DNA of 64,000 nt from an uncultured Gemmatimonadales bacterium (GTDB lineage: Bacteria; Gemmatimonadota; Gemmatimonadetes; Longimicrobiales; Longimicrobiaceae), in contig OY970303.1 in NCBI GenBank assembly GCA_963716255.1, positions 96,001-160,000 on the forward strand. Reading direction: 5' to 3'. Shown here piece by piece: positions 565 through 61,053 of this stretch. How positions within the stretch are numbered: the first letter of the stretch is position 1; every line of letters begins with the position of its first letter. The position numbers were made by a program, and so were the translations under genes. The notes under the pieces are model-generated. The model saw only the letters and a list, made by a program, of their open reading frames with translations. It had not been told where the DNA came from and did not search any database.

Positions 565-708
565 GTCGGGGACCCGGCTGCCGCATGCCGGCCCCCGATC
601 GTGGCGCTCTCCCCTCATCCTGTTGCGCGTCCACCACACTTTCGCGCGTCCCCGTGGGGGCTCCGCCCCACACCTCGCCGGCGCCGGCACCGTCGCCGTC
701 CCCCTCCC

Positions 709-751
709 CTGCAACGTTTCGTTGCATCCGCCGCTGCAAAGTTTCGTTGCA
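709..751. promoter_or_regulatory. Tandem palindromic operator/enhancer sites
   Basis: CTGCAACGTTTCGTTGCA (709-726) and CTGCAAAGTTTCGTTGCA (734-751), each TGCAA-N7-TTGCA. Confidence 0.55.
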
Positions 752-900: not shown

Positions 901-916
901 GGGTACACGCGTTGCC
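901..916 (+). promoter_or_regulatory. Putative sigma54 (-24/-12) promoter
   Basis: GGGTAC-ACGCG-TTGC vs consensus TGGCAC-N5-TTGC; GG-N10-GC spacing correct; 60 bp before ATG 976. Confidence 0.45.
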
Positions 917-975: not shown

Positions 976-1593
976 ATGAAAGGCAAGTTCATTCGGATGT
1001 GCAGCATCCTGGCGGCTACGGCGGCCCTGTCGTACGGGTGCGGCGAGGCCGCAGCGCCGCTGGCCCCGGAGCAGCCGGCGAACGGGCTGGTAGGCGACGT
1101 CCTCGGCATCGTGACCGAGGTCCTGACGCCCGTGACGGTGCTCCAGCGCACCAATCCCCTGGCGCGGGACATCTCCGTCTCCGAGGAGATCGGCAAGGAC
1201 GGCGGGACCATCGAGATCCGCGAGGCGGGAATCAAGGTCATCTTCCCGAAGAACGCCCTCGCTCCCCCCAAGAGCAAGAAGACGATGACCATCACCGTCA
1301 CCGCCCTCAAGGGCGACGACGTGGCCTACACCTTCCAGCCGCACGGGATCGAGTTCCGCGAGCCGGTCAGGATCGAGCAGGAGTTCAAGGGCACGAACGC
1401 CGAAAGGAACAAGGCGCTCATCGCCAGCCTGGAAGGCGCCTACTTCCCCTCGGTCAACTACCTGGATCCGCTTCGCGGCATCGCCAACGTGCTGGAGTTC
1501 CGGCCCACCAGCATGGACGTGTCCGGGAGCAAGGTCAAGTTCACCGTCGACCACTTCTCCGGCTACCTCATCGCGAGCGGGCGCCACCGGTAG
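976..1593 (+). CDS. Lipoprotein with ZU5-like domain and C-terminal HFS motif
   Basis: AGGAG RBS; lipobox-like LSYGC; IGKDGGTIEI..AGIKVIFPKNAL..FQPHGIEFREPVRI resembles ZU5; ends DHFSGYLIASGRHR. Confidence 0.75.
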   Translation: MKGKFIRMCSILAATAALSYGCGEAAAPLAPEQPANGLVGDVLGIVTEVLTPVTVLQRTNPLARDISVSEEIGKDGGTIEIREAGIKVIFPKNALAPPKSKKTMTITVTALKGDDVAYTFQPHGIEFREPVRIEQEFKGTNAERNKALIASLEGAYFPSVNYLDPLRGIANVLEFRPTSMDVSGSKVKFTVDHFSGYLIASGRHR

Positions 1594-1633
1594 CCACCGG
1601 CCCCGCTCACCACGACAGGAAGCGAGAAGAACC

Positions 1634-1852
1634 ATGACCCTACGATTCATGCGGCGAGCGGGCCGTGCCACCCTCGCCGTGGCCGCCCTGGCCCTGGCGG
1701 GGTGCAGCGCGGACCCGCCGCTCTCGCCCGCCGCCCCGCCGAGCGCGCGGATGTCCACGCAGACCGGCGAAGCATGGCAGCCGGCGGGGAGCGAGTCCCG
1801 CGCCTCCATCTACGTGATCGGCAGCGGGCGGAGCGGGCACGAAGAAGAGTAG
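1634..1852 (+). CDS. Small lipoprotein, possible signalling-peptide precursor
   Basis: Basic N-terminus, hydrophobic stretch, lipobox LAGC; C-terminal SIYVIGSGR. Confidence 0.7.
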   Translation: MTLRFMRRAGRATLAVAALALAGCSADPPLSPAAPPSARMSTQTGEAWQPAGSESRASIYVIGSGRSGHEEE

Positions 1853-1964
1853 ACGCCTCGGGGGCACGGCATCCCGCCGCCGCCCCCGTCCCGGGCCGAC
1901 GCGCACCTCCGCGCGCGGCCCACGCACCACCAGGCCCCGGCCCCACGCCGGAAGGATCGCCCAG

Positions 1965-4900
1965 ATGAGCCTCGTCAGCGCGGAAGCAGGCGCGACCGAC
2001 ACGTTCAGCGTGGAGCCGGGGTTCGACCTCCGCGGCCTCGCGCGGGACCCGCTCACCGACGCACTCCCCCGCGCGGCGTTCGAGGAGCAGCTGGAGCTGC
2101 ACCTGGAGCAGGCCCGCCTGCGGGGCGCGGCGCTGTCGCTCCTGGTGGTGGACCTGGACCACTTCAAGAGCATCAACGACGCGTTCGGGCACAGCCGCGG
2201 CGACGCCGTGCTGCGCGAGTTCGCCGAGCGCGTGCAGGGGATCATCCGGGGCTCCGACCTGCTCTTCCGCTACGGCGGCGACGAGTTCCTCCTGCTCCTC
2301 CCGGAAACCTCGCGCGAGCAGGCCGCGGTGCTGGCGCAGCGGCTCCTCACGCGCATCGGCGCCACGCCGTTCCCCGGCAACCCCGCCGTCTCCGTGTCGC
2401 TGAGCATCGGGGTGGCCAGCTTCCCCGAGGAGGCGCCCGGCGGGTTCGAGCTGTTCGAGCGCGCCGACCGCAGGGTGTACGAGGCGAAGCGCCGCGGCCG
2501 CTCGCGGGTGGTGAGCGACGACCAGGTGCGCCAGGAGACGGGAACGCTGGACCCGCCGGCCCGCCTCGTGGACCGGGAGGAGCCCATGCAGGCGCTGCAC
2601 GGCTTCCTCGCCGGGCTGCGCGAGGGGGGACGGGGCGCTCTGGCGGTGCTGGGCCCGCGCGGCGCGGGACGCACCCGTTTCCTGGCCGAGGCGCGCACCG
2701 CCGCCCTCCTGCAGGGCTACGAGGCCGTGGCGCTGCGCGGCACCCCGGCGCTCCGGGCCCGCGCCTTCGGGGCGCTGCGCGAGTCGCGGCGCGAGTTCCG
2801 CGAGGCGCTCCCGCACTCCCCCCGCGAGCTTGCGGCGCTGCTGGGCGAGATCCAGCGGGTGCGCGCGCGCTCCGGCGTGGTCCTGCTGCTGGACGACGTG
2901 CACGACGTGGACGAGGAGACGCTGGAGCTGCTGCGCGGGATCTTCGAGGGGTGCGACCTGCCGGTGGTGGGGGTGGTGTTCGCCGCCGCCGAGGCGCAGG
3001 CCGACGACCCGCACGCCTGGGAGGGCGAGGTCCGCGCCACCATCGCACTGCGGGAGCTGGGGTGGGAGGGGGTGCGCACCTGGACGCGCACCGTGCTGCG
3101 CTGGGAGCCGCCCGAGGAGCTGCTCGGCTGGCTGCGCCGCGAGACCGGCGGCCTCCCCGGCCGCATGCAGGCGGCGCTGGAGCTGCTGGTGGAGGAGCGG
3201 GCGCTGCAGCGCGCCGCGGACGGGTGGTCGCTGCGCGAGGGATACCAGGGGGTGCAGGTGCCGGCGGACCGCGGCCGGGGGGTCCACGGCGCGCTCCCCG
3301 CGGTGTCCACCAGCATCCTGGGGCGCGACGTGGAGATCGGCGAGGTCAAGCAGCTCCTGCGCGACGGGCGGCTGGTGACCCTCACCGGGCCCGGCGGCAT
3401 CGGCAAGACGCGGCTGGCGATCCAGGTGGCCGCGGAGCTGGCCGAGTCGGCGCCCGGCGGCGTGCACTTCGTGGAGCTGGCGCCGCTCGCCGCCCCGGAG
3501 TTCCTGGTGCCGGCCATCGCCGAGGCGGCCGGGCTCCAGCTCAGCGGCGGGAGCGCCCCCCGGCAGCAGCTCCTGGACTTCCTCCGCGACCGGCAGCTCC
3601 TCCTGGTGCTCGACAACTTCGAGCACCTGGTCGCCGGGGAGGAGCTGGTGGGCGACCTGCTCCGCGCCGCGCCGCGCGTCCGGGTGCTCGCCACCTCGCG
3701 CGAACGGCTCAACCTGCGCGAGGAGGCGGTCTACCCGCTGCGGGGGATGCCCATCCCCCGCGAGGGCGCCGATGCCTCGCCCGCGCACTCCATCGCCCTG
3801 CGGCTGTTCGCCAACCGCGCGCGCCGCCACGACGCCGCCTTCGTGATGGAGCCGGAGGACGTGGGGCACGTGGTGGACGTCTGCCGCATGCTGGGCGGGC
3901 TGCCGCTGGGGATCGAGCTGGCGGCGTCGCTGGTGCGCGTCCTTTCCTGCCGCGAGATCGCCGAGGAGGTGGCCCACAGCTTCGACGCGCTGAGCACGCC
4001 GCTGCGCGACTCGCCGTCGCAGCACCGCAGCCTGCGCGCCGTATTCGACTCGTCGTGGAACCTGCTGGACGCCCGCGAGCGCGACGCGCTGCGCCGCCTG
4101 GCGATGTTCCGCGGCGGCTTCCGCAAGGAGGCGGCGCAGCGCGTGGCCGGCGCCGGGGTGGGGGTGCTCGCCGCGCTGGTGGACAAGTCGCTGCTCACCC
4201 GGACGCCGGCGGGACGCTACCAGCTCCACGAGGTCTTCCGCGCCTACGGCGAGGAAAAGCTGCGCGAGGACGACCCGGCCCGCCGCGAGGCGGGGAGCCG
4301 CTGCTGCGCCTTCTACGCCGCCTTCCTGGCCGGGCGCGCGGGCGAGCTGGTGGGCCCGCGCCAGGCCGAGGCCCGCGCGGAGATCGGCGAGGAGGTGGAG
4401 AACGTGCGGGCTGGGTGGCAGTGGGCGGTGGAGAGCGCGGACGCGGAGGCGCTGGAGGCGTACGTGGAGCCGCTCTTCCGCTTCTACGCGGTGCGCAGCT
4501 GGTACCACGAGGGGGAAGGGCTCTTCGCCTCGGCGGCGGCGCGCGTGGAGCGCGGGACGCCGCTGTTCGCGCGGCTGATCGCCCGGCAGGGGTTCTTCCA
4601 CTCGCGGCTGGGCCGCTACGAGGAGGCGCGCGCGCTCCACCGCGAGAGCCTGGCGATCCTGCGCGCCGGCGGGGGCGCGGACGCGGCGCTCTCGCACTGG
4701 AGCCTGGGGAGCATCGCCCTCAAGCAGGGGCTGCGCAGGAGCGCGGTGCAGTCCTTCCGCCGGGGGCTGCGCCTGTACCGCGAGGCCGGCGACCGCGACG
4801 GGGTGGCGACCTGCCTCAACGAGATGGGGGCGGCGGCGCTGGCGGAGGGGCGCTGGGACGACGCCGAGCGCCTTTTCGCCCGCAGCCGCGGGCTGCGCGA

Positions 4901-5552
4901 GCGCCTGGGCGACCGCTCGGGGCTTGCCCACTGCGTCAACAACCTGGCGCTGGTGGCGGACGCGCTGGGGAGGCGCGAGGAGGCGCTGGAGCTGTTCCGC
5001 GAGAGCCTGCGCATCGCCCGGGAGGTGGGCGACCGGCGCAGCGGTGCCAACGCGCTCCACAACCTGGGCGTGTTCATGCGCCGCGACGCGGACGCGGCCT
5101 CCCCCGCGGCGTTCCGCGAGGCGAAGGCGCTGATCTCGGAGGCGCTGGAGGCGTACCGCGCCATCGGGGCGCAGGAGCAGGTGGCGCTGGCGCTCTACAA
5201 CCTGGCGGACGCGGCCTGCGCGCTGGGCCAGTTCGAGGAGGCCATGGAGCGCCACCGCGAGGCGCTGCGCATCGCGGTGCGCATGGAGGCCACGCCGCTG
5301 GTGCTGGGGATCCTGGCGGGGGTCGCCACCCTCCTGGCGGGCAACGGCGAGCGCGACTTTCCGCTGGAATTGCTGGCGCTGGTGTCGCGCCACCCCGCCG
5401 CCGACCGCGGCGTGCGGGAGCGCGCGGAGCGCTCGCTGGAAGCGCTGCGCTCCACGGTGGCGCCCGAGCGCTTCGCGGAGCTCTGCCGGCGCGCGGAGGG
5501 CCGCGCCGTCCGCGAGGTGCTCCCCGAGCTGATCGGCGCGGCGGCTGCCTGA
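1965..5552 (+). CDS. Diguanylate cyclase fused to degenerate AAA, STAND/NB-ARC-like ATPase and TPR array
   Basis: DLDHFKSINDAFGH and RYGGDEF; GPRGAGRT; GPGGIGKT, LLVLDNFEH, GLPLGIELAA; TPRs (NNLALV, HNLGV, YNLAD). Confidence 0.9.
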   Translation: MSLVSAEAGATDTFSVEPGFDLRGLARDPLTDALPRAAFEEQLELHLEQARLRGAALSLLVVDLDHFKSINDAFGHSRGDAVLREFAERVQGIIRGSDLLFRYGGDEFLLLLPETSREQAAVLAQRLLTRIGATPFPGNPAVSVSLSIGVASFPEEAPGGFELFERADRRVYEAKRRGRSRVVSDDQVRQETGTLDPPARLVDREEPMQALHGFLAGLREGGRGALAVLGPRGAGRTRFLAEARTAALLQGYEAVALRGTPALRARAFGALRESRREFREALPHSPRELAALLGEIQRVRARSGVVLLLDDVHDVDEETLELLRGIFEGCDLPVVGVVFAAAEAQADDPHAWEGEVRATIALRELGWEGVRTWTRTVLRWEPPEELLGWLRRETGGLPGRMQAALELLVEERALQRAADGWSLREGYQGVQVPADRGRGVHGALPAVSTSILGRDVEIGEVKQLLRDGRLVTLTGPGGIGKTRLAIQVAAELAESAPGGVHFVELAPLAAPEFLVPAIAEAAGLQLSGGSAPRQQLLDFLRDRQLLLVLDNFEHLVAGEELVGDLLRAAPRVRVLATSRERLNLREEAVYPLRGMPIPREGADASPAHSIALRLFANRARRHDAAFVMEPEDVGHVVDVCRMLGGLPLGIELAASLVRVLSCREIAEEVAHSFDALSTPLRDSPSQHRSLRAVFDSSWNLLDARERDALRRLAMFRGGFRKEAAQRVAGAGVGVLAALVDKSLLTRTPAGRYQLHEVFRAYGEEKLREDDPARREAGSRCCAFYAAFLAGRAGELVGPRQAEARAEIGEEVENVRAGWQWAVESADAEALEAYVEPLFRFYAVRSWYHEGEGLFASAAARVERGTPLFARLIARQGFFHSRLGRYEEARALHRESLAILRAGGGADAALSHWSLGSIALKQGLRRSAVQSFRRGLRLYREAGDRDGVATCLNEMGAAALAEGRWDDAERLFARSRGLRERLGDRSGLAHCVNNLALVADALGRREEALELFRESLRIAREVGDRRSGANALHNLGVFMRRDADAASPAAFREAKALISEALEAYRAIGAQEQVALALYNLADAACALGQFEEAMERHREALRIAVRMEATPLVLGILAGVATLLAGNGERDFPLELLALVSRHPAADRGVRERAERSLEALRSTVAPERFAELCRRAEGRAVREVLPELIGAAAA

Positions 5553-5572: not shown

Positions 5573-5706
5573 CGCGTGAGGGATTTCGGCCCGGAGGGGC
5601 GAGACCCCGCGGGCAGTTTCGCGGGGGCTCGACTCCGTTGCAAACGGTAGTCTCGTTTGCTACGGAGCCGAAGCCCGACCCCGGCGACAGCCGGGGGCAC
5701 GCCCGA
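5573..5706 (-). repeat. Repeat family A, copy 2
   Basis: Reverse complement of family A consensus. Confidence 0.95.
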
Positions 5707-5823
5707 CCCCGCAGTTCAATGCCGCACCGGGCGCACAACATGCGTTCTCACGTTCCCGACCCCCTCCCGTAGAACCCATCCTCGACGTCCTTCCCGGTGC
5801 ACGTCCCCCGAACCACGATCCCC

Positions 5824-6854
<1,031 letters not shown>

Positions 6855-6858
<4 letters not shown>

Positions 6859-13153: not shown

Positions 13154-13189
13154 TCGGCTTTTACGGCTTCAACTGCTTTTACGGCTGGG

Positions 13190-13340
13190 TCGGGCGTGCC
13201 CCCGGCTGGCGCCGGGGTCGGGCTTCGGCTCCGTAAGCCCGCAAACAACGCGGGCTAACGGAGTCGAGCCCCGGCGGCAGCACCTCTGAACTGAGGTGCC
13301 CCGCCGGGTCTCGCCCCTTCGGGCCGAAATCCCTCACGCG
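13190..13340 (+). repeat. Repeat family A, copy 3 (extended hairpin)
   Basis: Consensus, with GCACCTC-TGAACT-GAGGTGC replacing the AAACWGCC loop. Confidence 0.95.
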
Positions 13341-16043: not shown

Positions 16044-16178
16044 GCGTGAGGGATTTCGGCCCGAAGGGGCGAGACCCGGCGGGGCTGTTTCCGCCGGGTC
16101 TCGACTCCGTTGGGCTGCGTTGTTTGCAGCCCTACGGAGCCGAAGCCCGACCCCGGCGCCAGCCGGGGGCACGCCCGA
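16044..16178 (-). repeat. Repeat family A, copy 4
   Basis: Reverse complement of consensus. Confidence 0.95.
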
Positions 16179-16192
16179 ATCCGCCGTTCAAG

Positions 16193-30517: not shown

Positions 30518-30649
30518 TCGGGCGTGACCCCGGCTGGCGCCGGGGTCGGGCTTCGGCTCCGTAAGCGAGCAAACAACGCTCGCTAACGGAGTCGAGCCCC
30601 GGCAAACTGCCGCCGGGTCTCGCCCCTTCGGGCCGTAATCCCTCACGCG
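30518..30649 (+). repeat. Repeat family A, copy 5
   Basis: Matches consensus. Confidence 0.95.
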
Positions 30650-33536: not shown

Positions 33537-33560
33537 TGAGGACGGATGGGTACGCCCGGT

Positions 33561-33692
33561 TCGGGCGTGCCCCCGGCTGGCGCCGGGGTCGGGCTTCGGC
33601 TCCGTAACGCACGATAAAACTGTGCGTAACGGAGTCGAGCCCCGGCAAACTGCCGCCGGGTCTCGCCCCTTCGGGCCGTAATCCCTCACGCG
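33561..33692 (+). repeat. Repeat family A, copy 6
   Basis: Matches consensus. Confidence 0.95.
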
Positions 33693-34898: not shown

Positions 34899-34916
34899 CG
34901 GACTGCGACCGCGGGT

Positions 34917-35050
34917 TCGGGCGTGCCCCCGGCGGGCGCCGGGGTCGGGCTTCGGCTCCGTAAGCGAGCAAACAACGCTCGCTAACGGAGTCGAGCCCCC
35001 GCGAAACTGCCCGCGCGGTCTCGCCCCTTCGGGCCGAAATCCCTCACGCG
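34917..35050 (+). repeat. Repeat family A, copy 7
   Basis: Matches consensus. Confidence 0.95.
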
Positions 35051-39712: not shown

Positions 39713-39848
39713 TCGGGCGTGCCCCCGGCTGGCGCCGGGGTCGGGCTTCGGCTCCGTAAGGCAGCAAACAACGCTGCCTAACGGAGTCGAGCCCCGGCGC
39801 AAACAGCCCCGCCGGGTCTCGCCCCTTCGGGCCGAAATCCCTCACGCG
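39713..39848 (+). repeat. Repeat family A, copy 8
   Basis: Matches consensus. Confidence 0.95.
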
Positions 39849-60913: not shown

Positions 60914-61045
60914 CGCGTGAGGGATTCCGGCCCGGAGGGGCGAGACCGCGCGGCTGTTTGCGCGGGCTCGACTCCGTTACGCACGGTCGTTTCGTGCGTT
61001 ACGGAGCCGAAGCCCGACCCCGGCGCCAGCCGGGGGCACGCCCGA
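60914..61045 (-). repeat. Repeat family A, copy 9
   Basis: Reverse complement of consensus. Confidence 0.95.
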
Positions 61046-61053
61046 CCCTGCCG

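Follow-up and report, generated by a model that had tools for sequence, protein, structure and literature searches.

Two adjacent lipoprotein genes near the beginning of a stretch of 64,000 nucleotides (nt) from an uncultured soil bacterium of the Gemmatimonadales (contig OY970303.1, positions 96,001 to 160,000; the whole of this stretch is what we call the window) carry closely similar short peptides at their ends. It is this short tail, lying in the first protein beyond a predicted self-cleavage site, that is likely to be the functional unit of the locus, perhaps as a peptide signal. The first gene, ZU5a, codes for a lipoprotein of 205 amino acids which is, by its predicted fold, a stand-alone beta-sandwich of the ZU5/GAIN type. 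Its model, and the analogy with better known domains, predict that it cuts itself between F194 and S195, in the turn that precedes its last strand. The second gene codes for a lipoprotein of 72 amino acids. Judging from codon comparisons this small gene is real and under purifying selection, and alignment reveals only two conserved parts in its product, the signal peptide and a nonapeptide, SIYVIGSGR, that resembles the tail and does not vary. The features that carry the argument are the following:

976..1593, plus strand: ZU5a (P0001), the gene of the ZU5-like lipoprotein, 205 amino acids plus stop by translation
976..1041, plus strand: signal peptide and lipobox of ZU5a, Cys22 being encoded at 1039-1041
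1123..1590, plus strand: predicted ZU5/GAIN-like beta-sandwich, residues about 50-205, from the strand list of the AlphaFold2 (AF2) model
1552..1560, plus strand: H193-F194-S195, predicted autoproteolysis site with the cut at F194/S195, from conservation and position in the model
1558..1590, plus strand: tail SGYLIASGRHR, made of the last beta-strand and 2-3 further residues, the C-terminal product of the predicted cut
1634..1852, plus strand: tail-only minigene (P0002) of the 72-residue lipoprotein, by translation, with Cys24 at 1703-1705
1799..1831, plus strand: core R56-A-SIYVIGSGR66 of the small protein, the tail-like motif (alignment A6)

The small gene starts 40 nt past the ZU5a gene. 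Its product begins MTLRFMRRAGRATLAVAALALAGC... and ends, at the stop codon, with ...ESRASIYVIGSGRSGHEEE (also written ...SRASIYVIGSGRSGHEEE); that of ZU5a ends ...KFTVDHFSGYLIASGRHR (also written ...VDHFSGYLIASGRHR), its tail reading HF-SGYLIASGRHR. A preliminary description, made from the letters of the sequence, had noticed that the nonapeptides SGYLIASGR and SIYVIGSGR are identical at six of nine positions, and its coordinates, its sequences and this identity agree with translation and direct reading. When the genome is translated in all six frames (16,847,418 residues for 8.42 Mb), the pattern common to the two, S.Y.I.SGR, is present exactly twice, where 0.18 occurrences would be expected from residue frequencies, and for that reason the pair can hardly be the product of chance. 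Both occurrences are the ones just described, on the same strand and 247 nt apart, each at most six residues from a stop. A scan of the DNA downstream of ZU5 genes with 7-mers scored by BLOSUM gave 16 for the window and 15-16 for unrelated loci, failing to separate mimics from noise, and tail similarity was judged by the genome-wide pattern count, conservation and synteny instead.

Conservation in the small protein is distributed very unevenly along its length. Its family comprises 21 cluster representatives including P0002 (hence 20 relatives), 67-73 amino acids long, and in their alignment (A6) the lipobox LAGC is invariant in 21 sequences of 21, as are S58-R66 (SIYVIGSGR) and R56, with overall identity to the query falling to 63%. 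The mean majority fraction is 0.99 in the core (residues 56-66), 0.66 in the linker (35-55) and 0.56 over the last six residues. When the core codons of five loci are compared (the window, L044, L001, L002 and L003), 4 of the 11 differ, all of them synonymously, and 0 non-synonymous change is found. Against L002, the proportion of synonymous differences (pS) in the signal peptide is 0.55 and that of non-synonymous differences (pN) 0.10, a pN/pS of about 0.2 that points to purifying selection; the linker, with pS 0.31, pN 0.28 and an in-frame indel of three codons, is close to neutral. NCBIfam gave the small protein weak matches of the signal-peptide type only, and the ESM Atlas had no usable match for it. 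One locus, L003, harbours at 4662-4736 a shortened small gene, beginning MKLTLTRRMGRASIYVIGSGRGHRP..., without signal peptide or linker; it resembles an in-frame deletion between two GRA sites and lies at the end of a contig from a metagenome-assembled genome, where an assembly artefact is possible.

Taken by its sequence, ZU5a is a marginal member of the ZU5 family: the Pfam profile (PF00791) scores 22.0 bits for a cut-off of 21 (E 2e-4), over profile positions 2-39 of 97 only, and a precomputed match to it exists for 9 of the 63 relatives collected at E up to 1e-3 in one library. There is no NCBIfam family for the protein, and phmmer run with the single sequence against PDB sequences found no match. 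A profile of 35 relatives run against PDB sequences (E up to 10) had nine matches, eight of which were ZU5 proteins, with ZO-1 at E 0.046, ankyrins and UNC5B. The AF2 model computed from the alignment of these 35 relatives is all-beta, with a mean predicted local distance difference test score (pLDDT) of 83, exceeding 90 for most of residues 50-200; it comprises 15 strands and one helix of four residues, residues 1-46 being mostly of low confidence. Its last strands are 186-193 and 196-203, and H193-F194-S195 makes the turn between them. Foldseek placed ZU5 chains in its best nine rows (ankyrin-B at E 2e-4, ankyrin-R, UNC5b, ZO-1), followed by the GAIN domains of CD97, CELSR1 and BAI3. With VIA-align, the ZU5 domain of ankyrin-B (4d8o) gave Z 11.9 and a root-mean-square deviation of 2.6 Å over 122 aligned residues, that of UNC5b Z 8.5 and the GAIN domain of BAI3 Z 8.4, the GAIN domains overall spanning Z 6.4-8.4. 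The extent of these alignments is of interest: the GAIN chains 4dlq_A, 6v55_A, 7qu8_A, 8vti_A and 5kvm_A, which we take to be N-terminal fragments of cleaved GAIN domains, align with residues 62-194 of the model and end at the predicted F/S cut, and the GAIN chains 4dlo_A, 8ikj, 9mqr_A and 8oek (titled 'uncleaved'), together with the ZU5 chains, align on to residues 201-205. Among the matches listed there is no structure of a self-cleaving ZU5 domain, the ZU5 matches being those of ankyrin, UNC5b and ZO-1. The ZU5-like character that the preliminary description had attributed to the lipoprotein is upheld by Pfam, Foldseek and VIA-align alike, and the Foldseek comparison with ZU5 that it had called for puts the ankyrin, UNC5b and ZO-1 domains on top.

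The family to which ZU5a belongs is large. A second library yielded 906 cluster representatives, of which 622 had an E value of 1e-10 or below and nearly all a length of about 190-225 amino acids, and all 43 genome loci were Gemmatimonadota records (Longimicrobiaceae, Gemmatimonadaceae, Gemmatimonadales, Roseisolibacter). In alignment A1, with 35 sequences 31-91% identical to the query, H193, F194, S195, G196 and Y197 are each conserved in at least 90%, and C22 is invariant in 35 of 35; the lipobox of the window protein itself, LSYGC, is atypical, and its assignment as a lipoprotein was made from the conservation of the lipobox cysteine. HFS[GA]Y is present at 43 of the 43 genome loci. The tails of 132 relatives (loci L001-L123), which a script selected by HFS[GAS][YFW] so that they carry no information on H, F and S, have G at position 2 in 131 cases and Y at position 3 in 131; positions 4-5 are hydrophobic, giving a pattern of SGY followed by hydrophobic residues, and the length varies from 7 to 28 residues, with 38 tails of 7-8.

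Extracts from PMC3210808 give HFS as the motif at which PIDD and Nup98 cut themselves, and SF/S as that of CARD8 and NLRP1; the motif sits there where the ZU5-like domain has its C-terminal end, right ahead of a long strand, and UNC5b has Leu where HFS has Phe. Passages of a preprint by Brogan and Rudner (bioRxiv 2026, doi 10.64898/2026.05.12.724683) report that HFS-type MAIN domains cut between F and S, as seen by Edman degradation, that a change of S to A abolishes the cutting, and that the fragments stay associated. Because HFS is conserved in the present family and has this role in PIDD, Nup98 and MAIN domains, cleavage between F194 and S195 is predicted for ZU5a as well. The preliminary description had pointed to HFS as a self-cleavage motif, and the motif does prove to be conserved in homologues, in the turn before the last strand; a ZU5 fold and a motif conserved in homologues, two of the points on which it had staked this claim, are both found, the fold as a prediction. 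The same genome encodes a third ZU5-like lipoprotein of 206 amino acids (L140 1444-2064, C1 about 4390468-4391088; Pfam ZU5 E 2.9e-4), which has TTFATSD instead of HFS and the C-terminus ...GGSITVSGG, with the gene of an NtrC-type sigma-54 activator immediately upstream; relatives of this type retain HFS, as HFSTY at L141 and HFSEY at L143.

Where the small gene came from is suggested by the locus L004. There the orthologue of ZU5a is 59% identical, and the slot of the small gene holds a full ZU5-like lipoprotein of 204 amino acids, P0209, starting 50 nt after the ZU5a stop and ending 165 nt before a long open reading frame (ORF), L004 1895-5062, open at its 3' end. P0209 matches Pfam ZU5 at E 0.0025 and aligns end to end with ZU5a in BLASTP (25% identity, E 0.007); its C-terminus is ...AQLTHF-SIYAVGSSARSEEWY, with the tail HF-SIYAVGSS, and the window small protein reads RA-SIYVIGSGRSGHEEE in the corresponding place. 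BLASTP aligns the small protein with P0209 at its two ends only, in collinear fashion, with 10 of 25 residues in the signal peptide and 5 of 7 in the tail. The E values of these end similarities (0.13 and 0.25) are not significant alone, which is a point against the derivation proposed here. P0213, an orthologue 50% identical to the GGDEF-STAND-TPR protein encoded after the small gene in the window, lies on a contig of 20,235 nt, the length of the contig of L004 also, and we infer that it is the long ORF 1895-5062. Full-length matches of the small family were found in 3 of 71 family genomes (G000, G012, G013), all of the genus of the window, every other genome match covering the signal-peptide part only, and this confinement fits a recent reduction. 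Since its slot is taken at L004 by a full-length copy whose tail is HF-SIYAVGSS, the small gene is probably a reduced tandem ZU5 paralogue, ZU5b, that lost its body and retained leader, linker and tail, the case being mainly one of position. The most economical history would start from an ancestral order ZU5a-ZU5b-cyclase, one young lineage then losing the body of ZU5b. The preliminary description had presented the small gene as a mimic of the ZU5a tail: the likeness is indeed there, mirrored in the next gene and kept by purifying selection, and what has to be given up is the notion of an independent mimic, P0209 making it rather the remnant of a tandem ZU5 paralogue. A segment near the N-terminus of the second L004 gene, ATGYVYVIAEGK, was considered as a permuted tail and dropped, BLASTP aligning it with the first ZU5 strand.

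An extra copy of the tail is found elsewhere in the family and, as far as sequence comparison goes, it recurs in two genetic forms, as a minigene and as a fusion in cis. Tandem ZU5 lipoprotein genes exist in at least nine loci (L024, L036, L041, L042, L043, L057, L084, L089 and L098). Two other lineages have small exported ORFs with a tail-like end behind the ZU5 gene. At L005 and L045, the ZU5 tail SGYLVATGRR at the stop is followed by a small exported ORF ending ...ARFSGYAIATGM; at L033 and L026, the tail SGYIVAMD is followed by one with ...LAGYTV[VL]AD, which at L033 is the very end (...LAGYTVVAD). The register of such tail-like motifs with respect to the C-terminus is not general, since the small ORF of L026 reads past the motif; L028 has SGFPVMVD without a clear signal peptide. 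In 23 of the 132 relatives the second copy stands in cis (SGY....RR.GGY[IL].S[ST]G, for example HFSGYAVTS-RR-GGYITSTG...), and in 19 aligned sequences of the duplicated-tail pattern, HFSGY..[ST]..[RK][RK].GGY[ILM]..S[GN]...P, there is no variation in the second G, and the second Y is conserved in at least 90%. The AF2 model of one such relative, L010, has a mean pLDDT of 75, and its second copy, at pLDDT 47-60, is not packed on the sheet. The loci with a duplicated tail are L010-L015, L017, L019, L020, L023, L027, L051, L058, L063, L074, L081 and L105, and further L106, L111, L114, L115 and L123; wherever an ORF in the right frame was scanned, the neighbouring gene is of the TPR-HD_5 kind, or else a TPR ORF that is incomplete. 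At L010, L012, L015 and L019, short frames of the form ..G[AST]YI[AP]..G.. (for example RRPGAYIAPAGTSLL) recur in the interval after the ZU5 stop, just ahead of the TPR gene; they lack a signal peptide and probably reflect a DNA element that is conserved, rather than a peptide.

Downstream of the two lipoprotein genes, the window continues with the genes of two further proteins:

1965..5552, plus strand: GGDEF - STAND NTPase (AAA_16/NB-ARC) - TPR protein of 1195 amino acids (Pfam GGDEF 1e-40, TPR_12 1e-25, NB-ARC 3e-7)
5797..6858, plus strand: AAA+ protein of the sigma-54-activator type with a Fis-type helix-turn-helix, 353 amino acids (Pfam Sigma54_activat 2.6e-50, HTH_8)

Orthologues of the first follow the ZU5 and small genes at L001, L002 and L044 as well. 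The second has no GAFTGA motif, reading ELFGEEGHRSG, and Pfam finds no receiver domain in it; it may act without sigma-54, or as a regulator responsive to cyclic di-GMP (c-di-GMP), and whether it belongs to the ZU5 system is uncertain. The neighbourhood of the family at large was surveyed in 86 loci having at least 700 nt downstream, one ORF being taken in each by its high GC content at third codon positions and its length, and cut to 650 amino acids; one locus was without a suitable ORF, which left 85. TPR matches were present in 55 of these 85 ORFs, 31 of them combined with HD_5/HD (HD-GYP-like) and 24 with TPR only; among the 31, four add GGDEF and two AAA_16. The others divide into 3 GGDEF-STAND proteins cut before their TPR region, 3 sigma-54 activators, 5 members of other families and 19 without match. 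Adding the three GGDEF-STAND orthologues to the 55, a TPR neighbour is present in at least 58 of 85 loci, a lower bound since some of the 19 were read in a wrong frame (L015) and the choice made at L009 bypasses a nearer TPR-like ORF. The genome's second HFSGY lipoprotein conforms to this arrangement: 180 amino acids long (L156 5221-5763, minus strand, C1:5685720-5686262), it ends ...HFSGYLVGGHRQ with the tail SGYLVGGHRQ, and it is followed after 97 nt by a TPR-HD_5 protein of 548 amino acids (L156 3478-5124, minus strand, C1:5683977-5685623), with no small ORF between the two. A hydropathy scan of four TPR proteins detected no N-terminal signal peptide, and a hydrophobic segment, itself borderline, in the window protein alone. 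This segment, residues 1107-1125 (MEATPLVLGILAGVATLLA), has a Kyte-Doolittle value of 1.77 for its 19 residues and lies within the TPR region at the C-terminus; it is probably a buried helix, less likely a membrane segment. A correspondence between tail class and neighbour class (SGYLVSWH going with TPR-HD_5-GGDEF) was entertained as a sign of co-evolution and discounted, the loci being related.

Upstream of ZU5a, two elements deserve mention:

703..751, plus strand: tandem direct repeat of 24 nt with the core CTGCAA[C/A]GTTTCGTTGCA (repeat family D1, 88% identity, spacing 25)
902..915, plus strand: GGTAC-N5-TTGC, a promoter-like element of the sigma-54 -24/-12 type, about 61 nt upstream of the ATG

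The tandem repeat, about 150-200 nt upstream of the second element, is conserved at L044 and L001 and partly at L002 and L003 (alignment A4), and is a possible binding site for a regulator upstream of the operon. The element at 902-915 lies inside a block invariant in the five aligned loci and we infer it to be promoter-like from its sequence; a search upstream of ZU5a for the sigma-54 consensus with at most two mismatches found nothing, this element having three with respect to TGGCAC-N5-TTGCW. Of 100 other ZU5 lipoprotein genes, 19 have an element of the form GG[CT]A[CT]-N5-6-T[TC]GC in the 220 nt upstream, for a background of 0.036 per 220 nt. A consensus scan of positions 300-2100 detected neither a sigma-70-type promoter nor a terminator on the plus strand.

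How might such a locus operate? ZU5a would cut itself through an N-O acyl shift, as PIDD, Nup98, GAIN and MAIN domains do, and SGYLIASGRHR would then be held non-covalently as the last strand, a 'caged' peptide. The small gene, issued from ZU5b, would present a tail of this kind free of its cage, on a tether that is flexible and anchored in lipid; because selection retained the tail without its domain, we may suppose that the target of the tail lies elsewhere than in that domain. The reading that we prefer, though it is less likely than not, is that the tails are peptide ligands which finally arrive at the TPR sensor in the GGDEF-STAND-TPR diguanylate cyclase encoded next to them, much as RRNPP-type receptors sense peptides. 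The 'two routes to a related signalling peptide' of the preliminary description, self-cleavage on the one hand and a precursor on the other, have their place here as a hypothesis, to which the conserved adjacency of TPR signalling enzymes lends indirect support. Still more would be required of a complete caged-peptide module, in which a minimal ZU5/GAIN lipoprotein cuts itself and stores its last strand of 7-28 residues, a tail-only lipoprotein or an in-cis copy competes for the groove, and the displaced peptide is read by TPR-c-di-GMP enzymes; taken as a whole, we find this chain of events quite unlikely.

A number of observations weigh against the peptide proposal and the cleavage that it presupposes. 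The compartments differ, the lipoproteins being exported, the TPR proteins having no signal peptide and the GGDEF and HD-GYP chemistry being cytoplasmic, so that a peptide destined for the TPR domain needs processing and a route of import, none of which was found, importers not having been searched for. In the AF2 fold the tail forms a strand that is integral and modelled with high confidence, and nothing is attached to it in ZU5a that could pull it out. The minigene is rare, with about 10 of 122 loci in three lineages, and cannot be essential to the family. Adjacency to a TPR protein could equally mean that the lipoproteins are the output of a c-di-GMP circuit. Moreover the best structural matches, the ZU5 domains of ankyrin, UNC5b and ZO-1, presumably do not cleave themselves. 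This last point would suit a domain where HFS is structural only, with no cleavage and a tail that is a mere last strand, and so would the third ZU5-like lipoprotein of the genome, which retains the fold signature without the His. We nevertheless hold it to be unlikely, given that H, F and S are each kept in at least 90% of relatives as distant as 31% identity, that UNC5b has Leu and not Phe at the corresponding place (extracts from PMC3210808), and that bacterial MAIN domains of the HFS type do cleave (passages of the Brogan and Rudner preprint). In those same passages the fragments of GAIN and MAIN domains stay associated after cutting, which again speaks against a freed peptide.

As for the small ORF, it could be thought of as a decaying remnant without function, similar to the ZU5a tail by ancestry alone. 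Its probable descent from a ZU5 paralogue, its confinement to 3 of 71 family genomes and the shorter L003 version without signal peptide, at a contig end, would agree with this; the frame is nonetheless intact in all 21 cluster representatives down to 63% identity with the query, nonapeptide and lipobox are invariant, the core has changed synonymously only and the signal peptide evolves with pN/pS about 0.2, and we regard mere decay as most improbable. A tail that is kept might serve strand complementation: the tail of the small lipoprotein would dock into a ZU5 lipoprotein on the same membrane, adding to the edge of the sheet or replacing the cleaved tail, with a complex or a displaced ZU5 tail as the result. 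There is a precedent in the ZU5 domain of ZO-1, incomplete by itself and completed by a peptide hairpin of 22 amino acids from GRINL1A (extracts from PMC6928914), and VIA-align reaches residue 194 with ZO-1 ZU5 alone and residue 203 with the ZU5-peptide complex 2kxs; both proteins of the window have lipoprotein signals, so that they would be tethered side by side, and the motif matches the native strand at six of nine positions. A native tail, however, is made in cis and folds with its domain, and its exchange should be slow; the second copy in the model of the duplicated-tail relative (pLDDT 47-60) stays off the sheet, and the conserved TPR neighbour is left without explanation, which makes complementation rather unlikely in our eyes, if still worth keeping in mind. 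The lipoproteins may also be output and not input, that is, envelope proteins controlled by the c-di-GMP and enhancer-binding-protein genes, with tails that are structural or bind the envelope and no peptide signalling at all. Cyclic di-GMP commonly controls surface proteins; the sigma-54-type element and the tandem repeat upstream of ZU5a are conserved, elements like the former exist in 19 of 100 relatives, and sigma-54-activator genes were picked downstream in 3 of 85 loci and stand two genes downstream in the window. But this would give no reason for the invariance of a tail without domain, nor for that of the HFS chemistry, and the activator-like protein of the window has no GAFTGA motif, which is needed for contact with sigma-54; there is a small chance that it is the correct account.

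Comparison with known systems situates the locus between several of them. PIDD1, UNC5CL and the FIIND of NLRP1/CARD8 share with ZU5a the predicted beta-sandwich, for which solved ZU5 domains give Z 8.5-11.9, and the Pfam family ZU5; in extracts from PMC3210808 the ZU5 domains of the PIDD1/CARD8 type carry HFS or SFS where they end on the C-terminal side, right ahead of a long strand, as ZU5a does. They are cytosolic, multidomain, eukaryotic proteins in which the cut frees a folded UPA-death-fold module, whereas ZU5a is an exported lipoprotein; the UPA domain that comes after eukaryotic ZU5 domains and characterizes FIIND is absent after its ZU5 domain, the protein ending 11 residues past HFS, with tails of 7-28 residues in its relatives. 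The GAIN domain of adhesion G-protein-coupled receptors has in common with it a GAIN_B-like sandwich (Z 6.4-8.4), an H-x-S/T in the turn before the last strand and the idea of a peptide caged as that strand. ZU5a differs in having no helical GAIN_A (the model is almost all beta) and no seven-transmembrane receptor in cis, its tail being untethered, with no obvious release driven by force.

Closer in one respect are the MAIN domains, such as that of Bacillus subtilis YfkN, which are bacterial and exported and contain HFS, like ZU5a. According to passages of the Brogan and Rudner preprint, MAIN proteins average 158 kDa and line up a signal peptide, adhesion and enzyme domains, MAIN and a C-terminal wall anchor. 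ZU5a, of about 20 kDa, is anchored by lipid at its N-terminus, carries neither an ectodomain nor a C-terminal anchor, and stops 11 residues beyond HFS; the architecture of MAIN proteins is not found in it, a distinction drawn from the description in the preprint. The words 'lipoprotein', 'Gemmatimonad', 'ZU5' and 'TPR' were absent from the main text of the preprint in the form available, and its supplementary tables may list such proteins; a literature search on ZU5 lipoproteins of Gemmatimonadetes brought nothing relevant among the matches listed. The ZU5 autopeptidases of polymorphic toxins (Zhang et al., 2012; extracts from PMC3482391) are bacterial, secreted members of the ZU5 superfamily for which self-processing has been proposed; they are N-terminal in giant RHS/SpvB toxins, and are thought there to release the toxin filament. 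At the present locus there is no toxin, no RHS repeat and no immunity gene. In ZO-1 (2kxs; extracts from PMC6928914), the last strand or strands of ZU5 come from a separate peptide, as would be the case in a cleaved lipoprotein. ZO-1 differs from ZU5a in being cytosolic, eukaryotic and uncleaved, with a peptide that belongs to another protein.

The RRNPP systems (Rap/Phr, PlcR/PapR, NprR/NprX) offer a likeness of operation only. Their TPR receptors sense the re-imported C-terminal peptides of small exported precursors; they have been described in Firmicutes, and the receptors are transcription factors or phosphatases, whereas the present host is one of the Gemmatimonadota, which are diderm. 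A small exported precursor with a conserved short C-terminal peptide, next to a cytoplasmic TPR sensor, is what the two would have in common, and a cytoplasmic TPR protein beside an exported lipoprotein is found at no fewer than 58 of 85 loci and in the window. Here the TPR proteins carry GGDEF, HD-GYP or STAND domains, and one of the precursors would mature by self-cleavage.

Self-cleaving ZU5, GAIN and MAIN domains are known as joints in large proteins, the cut parts of which stay together until force or degradation separates them. The family described here comprises at least 906 sequence clusters and keeps nothing of this device but the domain itself and a peptide of 7-28 residues; as a consequence, the purpose of the predicted cut must lie in that peptide or in the chain ends newly made. 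The minigene can be seen as a natural deletion experiment in which the domain was removed, and export signal and tail were retained; nine residues of the tail having remained invariant all the same, the tail apparently does something on its own. Pairing with TPR-c-di-GMP enzymes suggests a route from the envelope to a second messenger, in a phylum whose signalling is, to our knowledge, little studied. Were the caged-peptide module to exist, bacteria would have in it an equivalent of the GAIN tethered agonist, converted into a signal that diffuses, and it would be a peptide-signalling route new to a member of the Gemmatimonadota; should the peptide idea prove wrong, the family would still provide a minimal and easily expressed model for autoproteolysis of the HFS type.

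In the surroundings of the locus, the upstream genes resemble housekeeping genes (purine biosynthesis, aldo-keto reductase), as judged from their first 50 residues. A dispersed intergenic repeat of about 140 nt with an inverted repeat of 24 nt, similar in kind to repetitive extragenic palindromes or miniature inverted-repeat transposable elements, has 883 blastn matches in the 8.42-Mb genome, 798 of at least 120 nt. Its copies in the window lie at 330-470, 5579-5718 (minus strand), 13187-13334, 16049-16190 (minus strand), 30518-30643, 33554-33686, 34914-35044, 39713-39842 and 60920-61048 (minus strand). They flank the three-gene module, and at about one copy per 9.5 kb throughout the genome this is an unremarkable position.

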